The notes below the pieces were generated by a model that saw only the letters and a program-made list of their open reading frames with translations, did no database searches and was not told the DNA's origin. Of a stretch of DNA of 42,039 nucleotides, positions 32,371 through 42,039 are shown piece by piece; position 1 is the first letter of the stretch, and each line of letters begins with the position of its first letter. This DNA is from a virus (Duplodnaviria; Heunggongvirae; Uroviricota; Caudoviricetes). A program made the position numbers and the translations under genes. The DNA is taken from IMG/VR virus record IMGVR_UViG_2740892429_000003; one strand, given 5' to 3'.

Positions 32371-33873
32371 GTGTCAACTTTGAGAATCGGTATGGAAATC
32401 CAAGAGTTTGTAAGTCACTATAAAAACCACCCTGTTCTATTCATTGGAACAGGATTTAGCCTACGGTATCTAGAAAACTCATTTAGCTGGGATGGTCTTC
32501 TTTTGAGTGTCGCAATGGAACTAACCGGTAATGCTGAGTTTTACTACGATTTGAAAGCTGAAAGCCTAGAAGGTGACGACTATCGATATGATATCTTAGC
32601 TACAAAACTTGAAGATATTTTTAATAAAAAGCTGGCAGAAGATCGTAACGGTAAGTTCAAAGACATCAATGATGTTTTCTATGAGCACATGAAAAAAGGG
32701 AAAAAACTAAGTCGATTCAAAATTTATTTAACTTCAATACTTAAAGACCTAAAGATAAAAGAGTCAATGATGGAGGAAATAAACAGCTTAATAAAAACAA
32801 GAAAAAACATAGGCTCCATCATTACAACAAACTACGACCAACTCGTAGAGAACATCTTCGAATTTAACCCACTGATTGGTAACAACATTCTTTTAAGTAA
32901 CCCATACGGTTCAGTTTACAAAATACATGGCTGTGTTAGTGATCCTAACAACATAATTATCACAGGTGAAGACTACGCAAACTTCGACAATAAATATGAG
33001 TTAATTCGCGCTCAATTACTCTCAATATTCATACACAACCCTATCATATTTATAGGGTATAGTATTAGCGATAAAAACATTAAGTACTTATTAAAAACCA
33101 TATTCTCATACGTTGACTTAAATACCGAACTTGCAAAAAGGATAAAAGATAATTTTCTTTTGGTTGAATACGAAAAAGACAGCATGTCAACTGAAATTAC
33201 GGAGCATGACATAGATATAGAAGGCATGTCTATCATAAGAATAAACAAAATAAAAACAAACAATTACAAAGCTGTATATGATGCCATCTCGGGACTAGTT
33301 TTGCCAGTATCCGCAATGGACATAAGAAAGGTTCAAAAAGTTTGGAGTACCATCAAAAGTGGTGGTGAGATAAAGGTTAAAATTACAGAAAATTTAGATG
33401 AACTTCGCAATGATGAAATGGTCATTGCTGTTGGTTCAGAAAGAACCGTACAATATGTTTATCAAACAAAATCTGAAATGATACAGAACTATTTTAAAAT
33501 AGTTGACGAAGCAAACTCTCAGCTTATCGCATTACTGAATAAGCAAACTATAGCTAATAGCGAACACTTTCCAATATACGCTTTTAGTTCTATCTGCCCT
33601 GAACTAGAAAATACCGAGACATACAGAAAACGGCAGCTAGATAAAATCATTGGTAACCTTTCTCGAATTAAAACATGTAAGAGTGATGCTGTGTCTATTG
33701 ATGAAATACTAAAAGAAACGAAAGAGTATAAAGTTGCTAACACGATTATGTATTGCGTACTAAACGATACTATTTCATTGAAACAACTACGAGATTATTT
33801 AACAAAACCAGGGCATAAAATTGATACCCAATACAGGCGACTTTTATGCTTGTATGATTATTTATCATATTAA
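32371..33873 (+). CDS. SIR2-family (SIR2_2 / ThsA-like NADase motif) protein with uncharacterised C-terminal domain; candidate single-gene defence cargo
   Basis: 500 aa; GTG start with GAGG SD; motifs GTGFS (26-30), TTNYD (152-156), KIHG (184-187), FIGYS (227-231); very low GC; flanked by hairpins 32295..32315 and 33899..33921. Confidence 0.8.
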   Translation: MSTLRIGMEIQEFVSHYKNHPVLFIGTGFSLRYLENSFSWDGLLLSVAMELTGNAEFYYDLKAESLEGDDYRYDILATKLEDIFNKKLAEDRNGKFKDINDVFYEHMKKGKKLSRFKIYLTSILKDLKIKESMMEEINSLIKTRKNIGSIITTNYDQLVENIFEFNPLIGNNILLSNPYGSVYKIHGCVSDPNNIIITGEDYANFDNKYELIRAQLLSIFIHNPIIFIGYSISDKNIKYLLKTIFSYVDLNTELAKRIKDNFLLVEYEKDSMSTEITEHDIDIEGMSIIRINKIKTNNYKAVYDAISGLVLPVSAMDIRKVQKVWSTIKSGGEIKVKITENLDELRNDEMVIAVGSERTVQYVYQTKSEMIQNYFKIVDEANSQLIALLNKQTIANSEHFPIYAFSSICPELENTETYRKRQLDKIIGNLSRIKTCKSDAVSIDEILKETKEYKVANTIMYCVLNDTISLKQLRDYLTKPGHKIDTQYRRLLCLYDYLSY

Positions 33874-36933: not shown

Positions 36934-37226
36934 TGGCCTACGAACGTGAAAGCCTTATCGAAAAGCACCTCGTCGCCGAAGTGAAAAAGGCTGGCGGGGT
37001 CGCCTTTAAGTTCGTGTCACCCGGTCGCCGCTCGGTACCGGATCGCATTGTCCTGCTACCCGGCGGTCGCATCGTCTTTGTCGAATGCAAAGCGCCAGGC
37101 AAACCACCACGGCCTGACCAGTTACGCGAGCACGAACGGCTGCGTGCGCTGGGCTTTACCGTGGTGGTATTAGATAGCAAAAATCTGGAGGGGATATTGT
37201 GCGGGGAGCCTATTACAACGAAATAG
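36930..37226 (+). CDS. VRR-NUC domain nuclease
   Basis: 98 aa from tandem ATG; PD...E-x-K signature (VPDRIVLLPGGRIVFVECK). Confidence 0.7.
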   Translation: MMAYERESLIEKHLVAEVKKAGGVAFKFVSPGRRSVPDRIVLLPGGRIVFVECKAPGKPPRPDQLREHERLRALGFTVVVLDSKNLEGILCGEPITTK

Positions 37227-38227
37227 ACCCTAACGCAGCACAATGGCTGCGTAACCTTATTGCTGCAGGTCATATCGCCCCGGGTGAAGTTGATGAAAGG
37301 AGTATCGAAGATGTCGCACCAGACGACTTGCGCGGATTCACACAGTGCCATTTCTTCGCCGGGATCGGCGTCTGGTCTTATGCTCTGCGTCTGGCCGGAT
37401 GGCCGGATAACAAACCGGTCTGGACAGGAAGTTGCCCGTGCCAGCCTTTCAGCTCGGCTGGTAAAGGCGCTGGGTTTGATGACGAGCGGCACCTATGGCC
37501 AGCACTATTCCACCTCATCAGCGAGCGACGCCCTAAGCTGGTATTTGGCGAACAGGTTGCGGGAGTCAATGCCTGGTTCGATCTTGTACAAACTGACGTG
37601 GAAGCAGTGGACTACGCCTTTGGGCTTGTCCCGTTTCCGGCTGCGGGCGTCGGTGCCCCGCATATCCGAGATAGAGCGTATTGGGTGGCCGACGCCAGCG
37701 GCGAGCGATCACAGCGGTGGCGAAAGCGCCTCAATAGCATTGAGGAAGATGTCTGGAGATCGTCGACCGTCCGGCAACACGCTACACAGCTCCCTGCGGA
37801 ATTTTGCTCACCTGGCGGGGTGGTACACCCCAACCTGCAACACAAACCCACAGCCGGAGACAAAACGCGGTCTAGAAACCTTAGCGGGACTATCCAGATT
37901 AGCGGGATGGCCGACAGTGACGACGATCGACAACAACCAAGTTCGTGCCGAGGGCGCAGCGGCCAATCATACCGAACGGGGAACGACCCTCGGCGGCGCT
38001 GCGAGAATCTGCGGCCCAATACGATTAACGGCTGCTGGGATGGTGCTGACTGGCTCCTCTGCCGGGATGGTCGCTGGCGGCCAGTTGAATCCGGCACATG
38101 CCCGTTGGCTAATGGGATTACCTCCAGAGTGGGACGACTGCGCGCCTACGGCAACGCGATAGTCGCACCAGCTGCCGCAACATTCATCCGCTCGTTTATG
38201 GAATGCGCAGGATACGACCTTATTTAA
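37199..38227 (+). CDS. DNA cytosine-5 methyltransferase (possible frameshifts in target-recognition region)
   Basis: Motif [10 protein letters not shown], motif [18 protein letters not shown], motif [12 protein letters not shown], motif X-like YGNAIVAP in this frame; middle segment is Arg/Ser-rich while overlapping frame 37260..38162 looks more protein-like. Confidence 0.65.
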
Positions 38228-38544
38228 TGCCACTCACATCTGGCATGATACCGTCCAGAAGGTAATTGCTTATATACAACGGAGCCGCCCATGGCATAAG
38301 TATAAGCATGAAGTTTTGTCCAGAAGTCCCCATAAACTAGTATTGGGGCTAAAAATTTTGGATCGCTAACCATAGATGTAGCAGGAAGCTCGAAACCTTT
38401 AGAAAGAATGTTTACCAGTGAAGGGTAATTTTCAAAATCAGTGCTATTCCCGCCCACCTCTAAAGCATCCAGTTCAAAGTCGAGCACTCCACCATTTTTG
38501 TAATACTCCGGAACAGTTAACCCTGATGTTAACAAAGTAGCCAT
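38224..38544 (-). CDS. Antisense low-GC hypothetical protein (cargo gene inside early operon)
   Basis: 106 aa; perfect AGGAGG SD 6-7 nt upstream of ATG; low GC; opposite strand to all neighbours. Confidence 0.5.
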   Translation of the reverse strand: MATLLTSGLTVPEYYKNGGVLDFELDALEVGGNSTDFENYPSLVNILSKGFELPATSMVSDPKFLAPILVYGDFWTKLHAYTYAMGGSVVYKQLPSGRYHARCEWH

Positions 38545-38578
38545 TAAACAATCCTCCTGAATTTTAAAGGGTTACATT

Positions 38579-39973
38579 ATGCCCAAAGTTTTCACGCCTC
38601 GCCCCTACCAAGATCTAATTATCAACCACGAAATCGACATTCACCGCTGCAACATCTGGGCAGGGATGGGGATGGGTAAAACCGTAGCGACACTCACCAC
38701 GCTGGAAGATCTTTTCATGGCGGGCTCAGAGACACAGCCCGCGCTGGTCCTCGCGCCGCTACGCGTTGCAGCAAGCACATGGCCGGATGAAGCGCTGAAA
38801 TGGGGGCATCTGCGCAATATCGAGGTGCAGCCGATTGTTGGTAACGCCAAAGCGCGCTCTGCAGCGCTGGCGAACAGCAACGCGAGCGTGTTCACCATCA
38901 ACTACGATAACCTTGTCTGGCTGGTTGAGGAATTGGGAGAACGATGGCCGTTCGGTACTGTCATTCCAGATGAAAGCACCCGGCTAAAATCCTTCCGGCT
39001 GCGAGGTGGTGGTAAGCGCGCGGCGGCGCTGGGCAAAGTGGCGCATAAGTATGTCCAGCGCTGGATAAACCTCACCGGTACGCCAGCACCGAACGGCCTG
39101 GTAGATTTGTGGGGACAATTGTGGTTTGTGGACCAGGGGCAACGTCTCGGGCGCACTTACGGCACGTTTACCTCACGCTGGTTCAACTCGATACAGTTTC
39201 CGGGGCAGAGCTGGACCAAACTGGAGCCGTTTGCTCACTCACAGGCTGAAATACAGCGAGCGTTAGCCGATGTGACCCTCTCGCTGGATGCGGCCGACTG
39301 GTTCGATATCAAAGCCCCCATCCATAACGTAATCCGCGTGGATATGCCGCCGAAGGCCCGTCAGCAGTATCGTGAAATGGAAAAGGAAATGTTCCTCGAG
39401 CTGAATGGCGAAGGCATCGAAGCACCAAACGCCGCGGCAAAGACACTGAAGTGTCTGCAAATCGCCAGTGGCGCAGTATACACAGACGACACCGGAAGTT
39501 GGTCAGAACTGCATGACACCAAACTGCAGGCGCTGGACAGCATACTGACCGAAGCAGCTGGCGCACCTGTGCTGGTTGCTTATCACTGGAAACACGATCT
39601 TGAACGCTTGCTTAAAGCATTCCCTCGCGGTCGTCACCTCGACCAAGATCCACAGACACTGCGCGACTGGAATTCCGGAAAGATTCCTGTTCTCTTTGCA
39701 CACCCAGCCAGCGCGGGCCACGGTCTGAACATGCAGGACGGCGGAAACATACTGGTATTTTTCTCACACTGGTGGGACCTGGAGCAGTATCAGCAAATTA
39801 TTGAACGTATCGGCCCCACCAGGCAGATACAGGCCGGACACAATCGTCCGGTATTTATTCACCACATTATTGCGGCCGACACTATGGACGAAATGGTGAT
39901 GGATCGGCGCAACTCAAAACGAACAGTGCAGGACATCCTGCTCAATGCCATGAAAAAGAGAGGTATAGCATGA
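38579..39973 (+). CDS. SNF2-family helicase
   Basis: 464 aa; Walker A AGMGMGKT, DEST (motif II), LTGTP. Confidence 0.8.
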   Translation: MPKVFTPRPYQDLIINHEIDIHRCNIWAGMGMGKTVATLTTLEDLFMAGSETQPALVLAPLRVAASTWPDEALKWGHLRNIEVQPIVGNAKARSAALANSNASVFTINYDNLVWLVEELGERWPFGTVIPDESTRLKSFRLRGGGKRAAALGKVAHKYVQRWINLTGTPAPNGLVDLWGQLWFVDQGQRLGRTYGTFTSRWFNSIQFPGQSWTKLEPFAHSQAEIQRALADVTLSLDAADWFDIKAPIHNVIRVDMPPKARQQYREMEKEMFLELNGEGIEAPNAAAKTLKCLQIASGAVYTDDTGSWSELHDTKLQALDSILTEAAGAPVLVAYHWKHDLERLLKAFPRGRHLDQDPQTLRDWNSGKIPVLFAHPASAGHGLNMQDGGNILVFFSHWWDLEQYQQIIERIGPTRQIQAGHNRPVFIHHIIAADTMDEMVMDRRNSKRTVQDILLNAMKKRGIA

Positions 39974-40170
39974 GCGAGAAACCCGACGATTTACTCACCC
40001 CAGATGAAGTATGCCAAAAGTTAGGTATTACACCGAAAACGCTATGTGAGTGGAATATTAAGCATCGTCATCGGGCTATCCTGGCACCAATTCGTTTCAG
40101 TGCAAAAGTAGTTCGTTATGAGCGCCGAAATGTCGACGCTTTTATTCAAAAGTGTCGCAGCCAGTATTAA
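39970..40170 (+). CDS. AlpA-like HTH regulator / putative excisionase
   Basis: 66 aa; LLTPDEVCQKLGITPKTLCEW...VVRYERRNVDAFI pattern; adjacent and convergent to integrase. Confidence 0.6.
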   Translation: MSEKPDDLLTPDEVCQKLGITPKTLCEWNIKHRHRAILAPIRFSAKVVRYERRNVDAFIQKCRSQY

Positions 40171-41570
40171 CCTCGCCGCCGTAGCAATGCAACCTGCGCA
40201 AGTATGCTCCGCTCGTGAGCCTCGAAAGCTTCGCGCTTTAACGCAATCTCTTCCTGTAAAATCTCATCAGAAAAGTCGTAATGTTCTGCCATCGGGTCAT
40301 CTGACTTGCTGGAGTGGTGAAGGCAAAGGAGGCTGATTTCCCTTCGGTCTGATCGGGAATAGCCTCTTTCCTTCATCAAGGCAATAACATTGCTCTTAAG
40401 GAATTTACGGCACATCGTATTAAATGCACCGTCTTTCCCTTTAACAGTCCCATCATGTTTTATTCCTTTTACAGCCCCGTCCGGGCTGTATGTTTTCACC
40501 AGCTTATCCAGTGATCGTTTTGAAAATGGCTGCATTGGATCACGTGGCTGCAAAAATACATAATCCCTGTTGCACTCAGGAACTGAATCACGCCAGGCTT
40601 TCTGCTCGTCGATAATCCGCCGGATCTCAGGCGTTATCGGCAGGCGGAAAGCCTTTTGTGTTTTCATAGCCCCTCGCATGCCGATAACCCCTTCCGGATA
40701 AACAATTTCACCAGCCTCCTCGTGAACGTAGTCCCAGCGCAGGTTATGGACATTAATCGGACGAACGCCAGTGATGATCATGAAGCGAACAGCATTCTTC
40801 TGGTGTACAGAGGTGCAGGCAGCAACATTGAGCCAGAGTCGGGCGATTGATTCAATATCGGTAAAAAGCCGTGTGGGGGTAGGTTTCTGTACGCGGGAGG
40901 AAACATAATCATCTGGCAGATTGGCGGCAACATTGCGGCCGTTGCAAAGAATAGGTGCGCAGAACTTCCAGAACCGACGGAGCTCGGCAAACAACTCCAG
41001 GGCGTTATTGTTCGAGCGAGTGGCGATCCACTCGTCCAGCACTTCCACCAGCCGATTGTATGTTACGTCGCTGAACACCTCACGCTCGCCGAACGTTGCT
41101 TTAATCCGGTCGATACGCACCCCGTAGGTTGTGAAACTGTCCGGGCTCAGCTTCTGCCGGGCGACTTTGGCTTTGAGGTCATCCCGGTACATTTCCAGCG
41201 CTGCATGTACTGACTCTGCCCGCAAGCCACAGTCAGCCATACCTAGCGCTTTTTCGCGCGCCAGCTGGATAGCGAGCTCCGGCCACTCGCCGAGCTTTTT
41301 ACCTTTGAGGCCCATCTTTTTTGGAAACTCGGCGTAAAATGTAACCTTACCGGCTTTGCTGAAATCGATACGGAGATAGTTCTCTTTTTCGTATTTGGAA
41401 CGGCGAGCCACGCCGGAAGCAGCGAGGATGATTTTGGCGGCAGCAACACAGATTTTCATGTGTGCGCTGGTATAGGGGGGTTTACAGGCGTCCCATTTTT
41501 CAGATGCGGCTAAAACATCGTCATTATTGGGGCTATCCGGATTATGTGTTACAGTGCGCGGCATTCTCAA
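40167..41570 (-). CDS. Tyrosine integrase
   Basis: Up to 467 aa; C-terminal catalytic region with HxxR-like and Tyr motifs (LCLHHS...AEHY); true start probably an internal Met (e.g. MKICVAAAK). Confidence 0.75.
   Translation of the reverse strand: MRMPRTVTHNPDSPNNDDVLAASEKWDACKPPYTSAHMKICVAAAKIILAASGVARRSKYEKENYLRIDFSKAGKVTFYAEFPKKMGLKGKKLGEWPELAIQLAREKALGMADCGLRAESVHAALEMYRDDLKAKVARQKLSPDSFTTYGVRIDRIKATFGEREVFSDVTYNRLVEVLDEWIATRSNNNALELFAELRRFWKFCAPILCNGRNVAANLPDDYVSSRVQKPTPTRLFTDIESIARLWLNVAACTSVHQKNAVRFMIITGVRPINVHNLRWDYVHEEAGEIVYPEGVIGMRGAMKTQKAFRLPITPEIRRIIDEQKAWRDSVPECNRDYVFLQPRDPMQPFSKRSLDKLVKTYSPDGAVKGIKHDGTVKGKDGAFNTMCRKFLKSNVIALMKERGYSRSDRREISLLCLHHSSKSDDPMAEHYDFSDEILQEEIALKREAFEAHERSILAQVALLRRRG

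Positions 41571-41769: not shown

Positions 41770-42039
<270 letters not shown>

Follow-up and report, generated by a model that had tools for sequence, protein, structure and literature searches.

An antisense gene for a 106-residue protein in a variable cargo slot upstream of a prophage helicase: a putative lysogen-expressed defence gene

Temperate phages and their satellites carry variable hotspots for defence genes, including the P2/P4 hotspots and the lambdoid cI-N region. Small superinfection-exclusion or assembly-blocking proteins of prophages, such as Tab, shield the lysogen by binding components of the invading phage and not by catalysis. Abortive infection by the prophage protein BstA, which is expressed in the lysogen, has been validated experimentally (PMC8585504). 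Here we analyzed a 42,039-nucleotide (nt) stretch of a tailed-phage genome (IMG/VR record IMGVR_UViG_2740892429_000003; hereafter the window). In it, a minus-strand open reading frame (ORF) of 106 codons is located between the genes for a C5 cytosine methyltransferase and an SNF2-family helicase. This ORF is a genuine, selected and fast-evolving single-gene accessory ('moron') cargo.

Similar to the P2/P4 and cI-N hotspots, the joint upstream of the helicase is a fixed site between conserved core genes, where unrelated, AT-rich cargo is exchanged and many of the items are defence genes. Unlike them, it is located inside an Enc34-type replication operon at a translational-coupling joint, and its cargo is mostly antisense to the operon. 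BstA is also found as single-gene prophage cargo in the identical joint, antisense between the C5-methyltransferase or a VRR-NUC gene and the SNF2 helicase. However, it shares no sequence similarity with the 106-residue protein and is longer (about 310 compared to 106 residues), and no aba-like self-immunity element was identified for the 106-residue gene. The likeness to Tab is an analogy only, both proteins being small and prophage-encoded. The protein belongs to the same family as phrog_28127, a PHROG without functional annotation. In the literature library searched, we found nothing on phrog_28127 or WP_000212683, the RefSeq entry for the protein, and no description of the slot upstream of the helicase.

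The gene occupies positions 38224..38544 of the minus strand and starts with ATG. RefSeq records of the prophage, which are identical over the 1,001 bases queried, annotate it as a hypothetical protein (WP_000212683.1). In these records it is the only minus-strand coding sequence from the first gene past the LexA-type repressor to the helicase, and no plus-strand ORF longer than 40 residues competes with it. An initial annotation of the window had described an antisense ORF of 106 residues among plus-strand early genes, and both the ORF calls and RefSeq bear this out. It had placed the gene at 38224-38578. The ORF is real and ends at 38544; the larger coordinate takes in a 34-nt spacer.

The gene is tightly packed between its neighbors. 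A Shine-Dalgarno sequence, AGGAGG, is found at 38558..38553 of the minus strand, and GGAG or GAGG is kept in all homologous loci. Its presence had been recognized correctly, at a presumed distance of 6-7 nt from the ATG; the spacing is 8 nt. Exactly 34 nt separate this ATG from that of the helicase at 38579, as originally reported, and the two starts diverge. The spacer (38545..38578) holds the ribosome-binding sites (RBS) of both the 106-residue gene (minus strand) and the helicase (plus strand, AAAGGG...ATG). At the other end, the stop codon (38224-38226) overlaps that of the methyltransferase (38225-38227, plus strand). The two genes do adjoin, as had been noted. They do not merely abut, since the ORFs overlap convergently by 4 nt (38224..38227) and share the stop bases 38225-38226. 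There is room for a terminator on neither strand. The markedly lower GC content noted earlier was also confirmed. The GC fraction is 0.417 in the gene and 0.346 at its third codon positions, compared to 0.583 and 0.580 in the methyltransferase and 0.551 and 0.613 in the helicase. Along the sequence, it is about 0.40 over the ORF and 0.55-0.63 on either side.

Variable cargo upstream of the helicase

The joint that immediately precedes the SNF2 helicase gene serves as a hypervariable slot for cargo. We surveyed it at 90 loci, comprising 80 IMG/VR loci with a helicase at least 93% identical and 10 annotated E. coli loci. The interval between the VRR-NUC stop and the start of the helicase varies from -37 to 2163 nt. 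The loci fall into 28 slot architectures, with 30 clusters of cargo ORFs among them, and only three are empty. At least one antisense ORF is present at 62 of the 90 loci. Mean GC across the 17 antisense cargo clusters is 38%, compared to 56.8% for the helicase, whose first 3-4 codons vary with the cargo. Among 5,426 complete E. coli genomes, at least 120 contain the slot, and it also occurs in Klebsiella, Enterobacter, Pectobacterium and Salmonella.

The cargo is diverse. In the annotated E. coli loci, the 106-residue gene is replaced by nothing, with VRR-NUC overlapping the helicase start, or by an antisense gene of 309-310 residues. Other replacements are a three-gene antisense block, antisense genes of 236, 265, or 71 plus 166 residues, and an Arc/Arc/Rha regulatory block. 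PADLOC identified the protein of 309-310 residues as BstA (E 1e-110 to 1e-115) and the 292-residue member of the three-gene block as PDC-S42 (E 5e-40). Antisense cargo in the survey is composed of BstA, the PDC-S42 block, three multi-pass hydrophobic (apparently membrane) proteins, unassigned soluble proteins and the 106-residue family. Plus-strand cargo is composed of C5-methyltransferases, an S-adenosylmethionine (SAM) methyltransferase, an SspD-like PAPS reductase, a weakly TIR-like protein, an HNH protein and Arc and Rha regulators. Domain search and slot comparison define the borders in the window. The C5-methyltransferase (37199..38227, plus strand) forms the left border of the cassette and is itself optional plus-strand cargo of the same slot, and the SNF2 helicase (38579..39973, plus strand) forms the right border of the slot.

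The 106-residue family is found at 8 of the 90 loci and is antisense at all of them. At four, the window's version follows the methyltransferase. At the other four, a version of 104-108 residues, about 35% identical, directly follows VRR-NUC. The window's methyltransferase is followed by the helicase directly at five loci, by the 106-residue gene at four and by BstA at three. The gene had initially been described as independently acquired and oppositely transcribed. The syntenic prophages without it, the empty sites and the alternation of nothing, the 106-residue gene and BstA after one methyltransferase agree with this description. The gene thus displays two properties of accessory genes, presence/absence polymorphism with empty sites and a base composition unlike that of the phage backbone.

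Eight or more other families of antisense, AT-rich cargo in the slot have no PADLOC match. They include proteins of 265 residues (loci L031/L032/L072), 236 residues (L030/L100), 164-177 residues (L029/L084), 206 residues (L049), 254 residues (L102) and 214 residues (L047). Five of the eight were scanned against Pfam, with no meaningful match. Three of the eight resemble multi-pass membrane proteins, as superinfection-exclusion factors typically are. All eight families are candidates for a defence role.

Empty sites delimit the cassette. We used positions 37900-38900 as a megablast query against the 5,426 complete E. coli genomes. The whole segment is found at 99% identity or more in 20 of them. 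In about 100 further E. coli prophages, the match either ends at the methyltransferase stop or begins at the helicase start, with break-points at query positions 324 and 677-722. In prophages with the methyltransferase only, the empty joint reads GGATATGACCTCATCTAAAATTTTCACC; the methyltransferase stop is located within the first codons of the helicase and overlaps its ATG. Empty joints are found at L028, L081, L085 and L056/58/70/71. The helicase product starts MTSSKIFTP in the methyltransferase-only prophages and MPKVFTP in the window. The joint in the window reads GGATACGACCTTATTTAA, then the 351-nt cassette (38228-38578), then ATGCCCAAAGTTTTCACG. These comparisons indicate that the cassette is a 351-nt insertion placed exactly at the translational-coupling joint upstream of the helicase. 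The former ATG of the helicase has decayed to ACG, and the cassette provides the helicase with a new RBS and start.

The old joint has left a trace. Three unrelated plus-strand cargo enzymes, the C5-methyltransferase, the SAM-methyltransferase and the SspD-like PAPS reductase, all terminate in the residues GYDLI followed by the stop. The final codons of each overlap the ancestral start of the helicase, ATGACCTCATCTAA (window 38210-38227; junctions at L078, L082 and L056). The decayed ACGACCTTATTTAA at 38210-38227 of the plus strand is a relic of this former joint. No direct or inverted repeats flank the cassette, and transposon- or integron-like mobility was rejected on this ground. Because such repeats are lacking, exchange presumably occurs via recombination in the conserved flanks. 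An Rfam search found no structured RNA in the cassette.

The protein family and its genomic settings

Homologues at 64-97% identity are found in Salmonella, Klebsiella, Pectobacterium, Enterobacter and Buttiauxella. They form 12 protein clusters, 11 of exactly 106 residues and the twelfth a 77-residue fragment. Pairwise among the 106-residue homologues, the proportion of differing nonsynonymous sites (pN) is 0.12-0.23, compared to 0.6-0.85 for synonymous sites (pS), which are saturated. Where computable, the ratio of the corresponding substitution rates (dN/dS) is 0.05-0.15. The protein matches phrog_28127 (PHROGs v4) over its full length, residues 1-106 aligning with positions 1-106 of a 106-position profile (E 1.7e-59). 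An exhaustive profile search extended the phrog_28127 family to 56 clusters (50% identity) at E <= 1e-3, nearly all of 102-122 residues. G19, G87 and Y91 are invariant in the family alignment, and G18, E38, G50, F51, P55, W75 and A101 are nearly so.

The initial annotation had recognized no motif in the protein, and Pfam, NCBIfam and PADLOC also returned no match. A Pfam scan of 50 family members revealed no credible domain. PADLOC-DB v2.0.0, a release dated 2023 that includes BstA, gave 0 families at E <= 10 for the 106-residue protein and nothing at E <= 0.01 for the divergent homologue in the slot. Sequence profile searches of the PDB gave noise only (for example, fibrillarin at E 0.02). 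Sequence scans identified no catalytic or enzyme motif, and no helix-turn-helix (HTH) or other DNA-binding domain. In isolated phage genomes (INPHARED), tblastn found a homologue of neither subfamily.

The protein is predicted to be soluble (maximum 19-residue hydropathy 0.88) and mildly acidic, with an isoelectric point (pI) of 5.15 and a net charge of -4; the median pI of the family is 5.1. Homology searches and structure prediction had been proposed at the outset as checks on the gene. The searches recovered the full-length homologues and PHROG match described above. In the prediction, AlphaFold with a 50-sequence alignment produced a confident, compact alpha/beta model (predicted local distance difference test score 94.5, predicted template modelling score 0.85), and no solved relative of it was recognized. 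The model has no significant structural similarity to solved anti-defence, antitoxin or immunity folds, and the predicted fold appears to be without a recognizable solved relative. Some family members have additional elements. P0059 (208 residues) contains the domain in tandem duplication, P0030 ends in a zinc-ribbon-like CxxC...CxxxxC tail at its C-terminus, and P0053 has an extension of about 90 residues. These architectures give no pointer to function.

The position of the gene is kept over large distances. In Klebsiella, Pectobacterium and Enterobacter prophages, which occupy other integration sites, the homologue is likewise antisense; 34-35 nt separate it from the ATG of the helicase, and there is a 4-nt overlap with the stop of VRR-NUC. 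At these loci, the cargo protein is 67-71% identical, compared to 91-95% for the helicase and 79-88% for VRR-NUC. The cargo therefore evolves much faster than its neighbors. A 43%-identical homologue, also antisense, keeps this slot position in a prophage with a 79%-identical helicase. The spacer measures 32-35 nt in the Klebsiella, Pectobacterium and Enterobacter loci and in the locus with the 43%-identical homologue, and locus comparison indicated that it is more conserved than the gene itself.

The gene stays intact when the surrounding prophage decays. In a decayed Buttiauxella prophage, nucleotide homology is confined to the equivalent of 38660-38220, which takes in the ORF, the spacer and the first 82 nt of the helicase gene. 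In a decayed metagenomic prophage (L114-L116), an intact 106-residue ORF (L114, 6001-6321) is located between two dead stubs, 442 nt of helicase without a start codon and 105 nt of VRR-NUC. This ORF is 310 nt upstream of a complete Septu system (PtuA, E 1.5e-230; PtuB, E 5.6e-103). The arrangement suggests that the small gene was domesticated into a defence island.

Distant homologues are found in further settings. One in Dyella is located between Lamassu (LmuA/C/B) and PDC-S06, in an integrase-bearing island. Others adjoin a gene for a giant double-PIN protein and DUF4365, lie near a HEPN/MNT toxin-antitoxin region, or directly follow the integrase of an integrative mobilizable element. A 38%-identical homologue is carried by a Burkholderia megaplasmid (MPF_T in mating-pair typing), in a run of small hypothetical genes. 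Across about seven independent contexts, a small sample, the family recurs among known defence genes, in the slot, beside Septu, beside Lamassu and PDC-S06, and beside the double-PIN protein and DUF4365. A conserved partner gene was considered and rejected, as the genes downstream of the homologues are mutually dissimilar. Since these neighbors are unrelated to one another, the family works as a single-gene unit.

Expression, proposed function and alternative explanations

No terminator-like hairpin or sigma-70 consensus promoter was found on either strand in 37900-39100, and a laxer sigma-70 scan still gave no convincing site. The 34-nt spacer is too short to hold a promoter and leader, and any promoter must therefore lie inside the helicase coding sequence. 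The block 38545-38660, which always travels with the gene, is the likely site and is predicted to contain it. Its upstream part (38579..38660, read on the minus strand) falls within the first 27 helicase codons and is the only flanking DNA kept in the decayed Buttiauxella locus. A candidate -10 element, GATAAT, is found at 38623-38618; it reads TATAAT and TGTGATAAT in two loci freed of the helicase coding constraint. A second candidate, CATAAT at 38581-38576, corresponds in reverse complement to the sequence around the helicase start. As promoter evidence, both hexamers are suggestive only. The integrase gene is on the same strand 1.6 kb upstream, and read-through from its promoter is a remote alternative source of transcription.

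A promoter within the 5' region of the helicase gene would make the mRNA leader complementary to the helicase initiation region. Since there are no terminators, early-operon transcription must likewise pass in antisense through the 106-residue gene. We infer that leader complementarity and read-through would offer built-in chances of mutual interference.

We propose, tentatively, that the 106-residue protein is a putative lysogen-expressed defence or exclusion protein of the binding type, a reading we place just short of probable. The AT-rich cassette of 351 nt arrived at the coupling joint upstream of the SNF2 helicase, in a temperate phage that is integrated next to yfhL and has an Enc34-type replication module. 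In the lysogen, the gene would be transcribed antisense from a weak promoter in the first 80 or so nt of the helicase gene. The 12-kDa protein would act stoichiometrically, by binding a component of the superinfecting phage or a host factor needed by it; a binding-type action is suggested because the protein has no enzymatic signature. The binding would give superinfection exclusion or defence. On induction, convergent read-through of the early operon over the terminator-less cassette would suppress the gene and spare the resident phage. The initial annotation had named immunity or defence as possible roles. This is supported by association only, with BstA and PDC-S42 in the slot and Septu, Lamassu and PDC-S06 as neighbors; the protein itself matches no known defence family.

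Several points weigh against a defence role. No PADLOC model matched the protein, so the defence assignment rests entirely on guilt by association. Some cargo of the slot is not defensive, namely the methyltransferases, the Arc and Rha regulators and an HNH protein. The IMG/VR loci behind the slot counts are partly redundant, and their slot ORFs were called mechanically. The setting on the Burkholderia megaplasmid fits anti-defence or plasmid-establishment genes equally well. Persistence of the family in the exact slot down to 43% identity could mean a phage-intrinsic role. With neither a sigma-70 consensus promoter nor a terminator at hand, lysogenic transcription of the gene is conjecture.

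Two other explanations were weighed. The protein may be a counter-defence factor, a small acidic binder that inhibits host immunity when the element enters or is induced. It is small, soluble, acidic and fast-evolving and has no enzymatic motif. The slot also carries plus-strand DNA-modification genes that protect phage DNA, and homologues are located beside the integrase of the mobilizable element and in the small-gene run of the megaplasmid. However, the antisense orientation of the gene and its retention in chromosomal islands argue against this function, and we consider it unlikely. A phage-intrinsic regulator is less likely still. Here, an antisense RNA over the helicase RBS, or the protein, would dampen the helicase and replication module and so stabilize lysogeny. 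The head-to-head spacer of 32-35 nt to the helicase start is strictly kept, even at 43% protein identity, and an mRNA leader from the predicted promoter would be complementary to the helicase translation-initiation region. However, most sister prophages lack the gene and have unrelated or no cargo at the joint, the gene persists at loci with a dead or missing helicase, and no SNF2 gene adjoins the distant homologues. The strong purifying selection on its sequence indicates that the protein matters, not the transcript alone.

Two further explanations fare worse. A role in a toxin-antitoxin pair, also raised in the initial annotation, or as an immunity protein for a neighboring nuclease, has some appeal from nuclease-like neighbors outside prophages: HNH_2 in Buttiauxella, a weakly HSDR_N_2-like ORF in a metagenome-assembled genome, and DUF4365. 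The cassette is a single ORF with no room for a partner, however, and no partner is conserved across contexts. The neighbors at different loci are mutually unrelated, the adjacent partner of a type II system is missing, and no Rfam RNA could serve as an RNA antitoxin. The toxin-antitoxin suggestion thus failed, and we regard this role as very improbable. That the ORF is spurious, an antisense artifact in non-coding filler, might be suspected from its short length and its annotation only as 'hypothetical protein'. The conserved length, the dN/dS well below 1, the 56-cluster family, the canonical Shine-Dalgarno sequence and the confident AlphaFold model built from family covariation speak against it. 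The conservation data have already refuted this explanation, to which we assign next to no probability.

Other features of the prophage and significance

A 500-residue SIR2-family protein is encoded at 32371-33873 of the plus strand, between the DUF2815/Enc34 single-stranded DNA-binding gene and the DNA polymerase gene. It matches the PADLOC candidate PDC-S25 (E 5e-158) and has ThsA-like STALD similarity. At or near this position, an Enterobacter relative encodes CAP12-PCTIR_TIR, another relative SIR2_2, and E. coli relatives an antisense HATPase_c protein. The replication operon seems to have a second cargo slot here. Downstream of the helicase, a 66-residue HTH_17/AlpA-like (excisionase-type) ORF at 39970-40170 (plus strand) overlaps the stop of the helicase gene at one end and the convergent integrase gene (40167-41570, minus strand) at the other. 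It is left unannotated in several RefSeq records of the prophage. The window ends with yfhL (4Fe-4S ferredoxin; 41779-42039, plus strand), and shoB is located just beyond in genome records. The prophage is integrated beside yfhL, and relatives that share its replication module are found elsewhere, adjacent to sbcB or rcsD or upstream of zur.

Prophage defence hotspots and moron genes are already known, as is the family in the form of an unannotated PHROG. New here are the definition of the slot with its strand rule and the nomination of the 106-residue family as a minimal candidate without a solved fold relative. According to the strand rule, plus-strand cargo is predicted to serve lytic growth and minus-strand cargo the lysogen. 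The rule will need revision if the 106-residue protein proves to be anti-defence or regulatory.

A broader proposal is possible but doubtful: that the protein founds a new single-gene defence family (about 56 clusters, in Proteobacteria), and that the slot is a previously undescribed antisense 'defence library' gated by convergent transcription from the lytic operon. If this is true, the helicase-proximal joint of Enc34-type prophages would hold at least a dozen further uncharacterized defence candidates. Prophage hotspots are among the most productive sources of new bacterial immune systems. The slot described here is compact and sharply bordered, and holds about 17 antisense families, including one validated system (BstA) and one candidate system (PDC-S42). 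The 106-residue family is the smallest of them. Should it prove to block phages, it would represent a minimal defence protein without enzymatic activity, one that lends itself readily to dissection, and it would bear on the host range of phages used for therapy in uropathogenic E. coli and Klebsiella.

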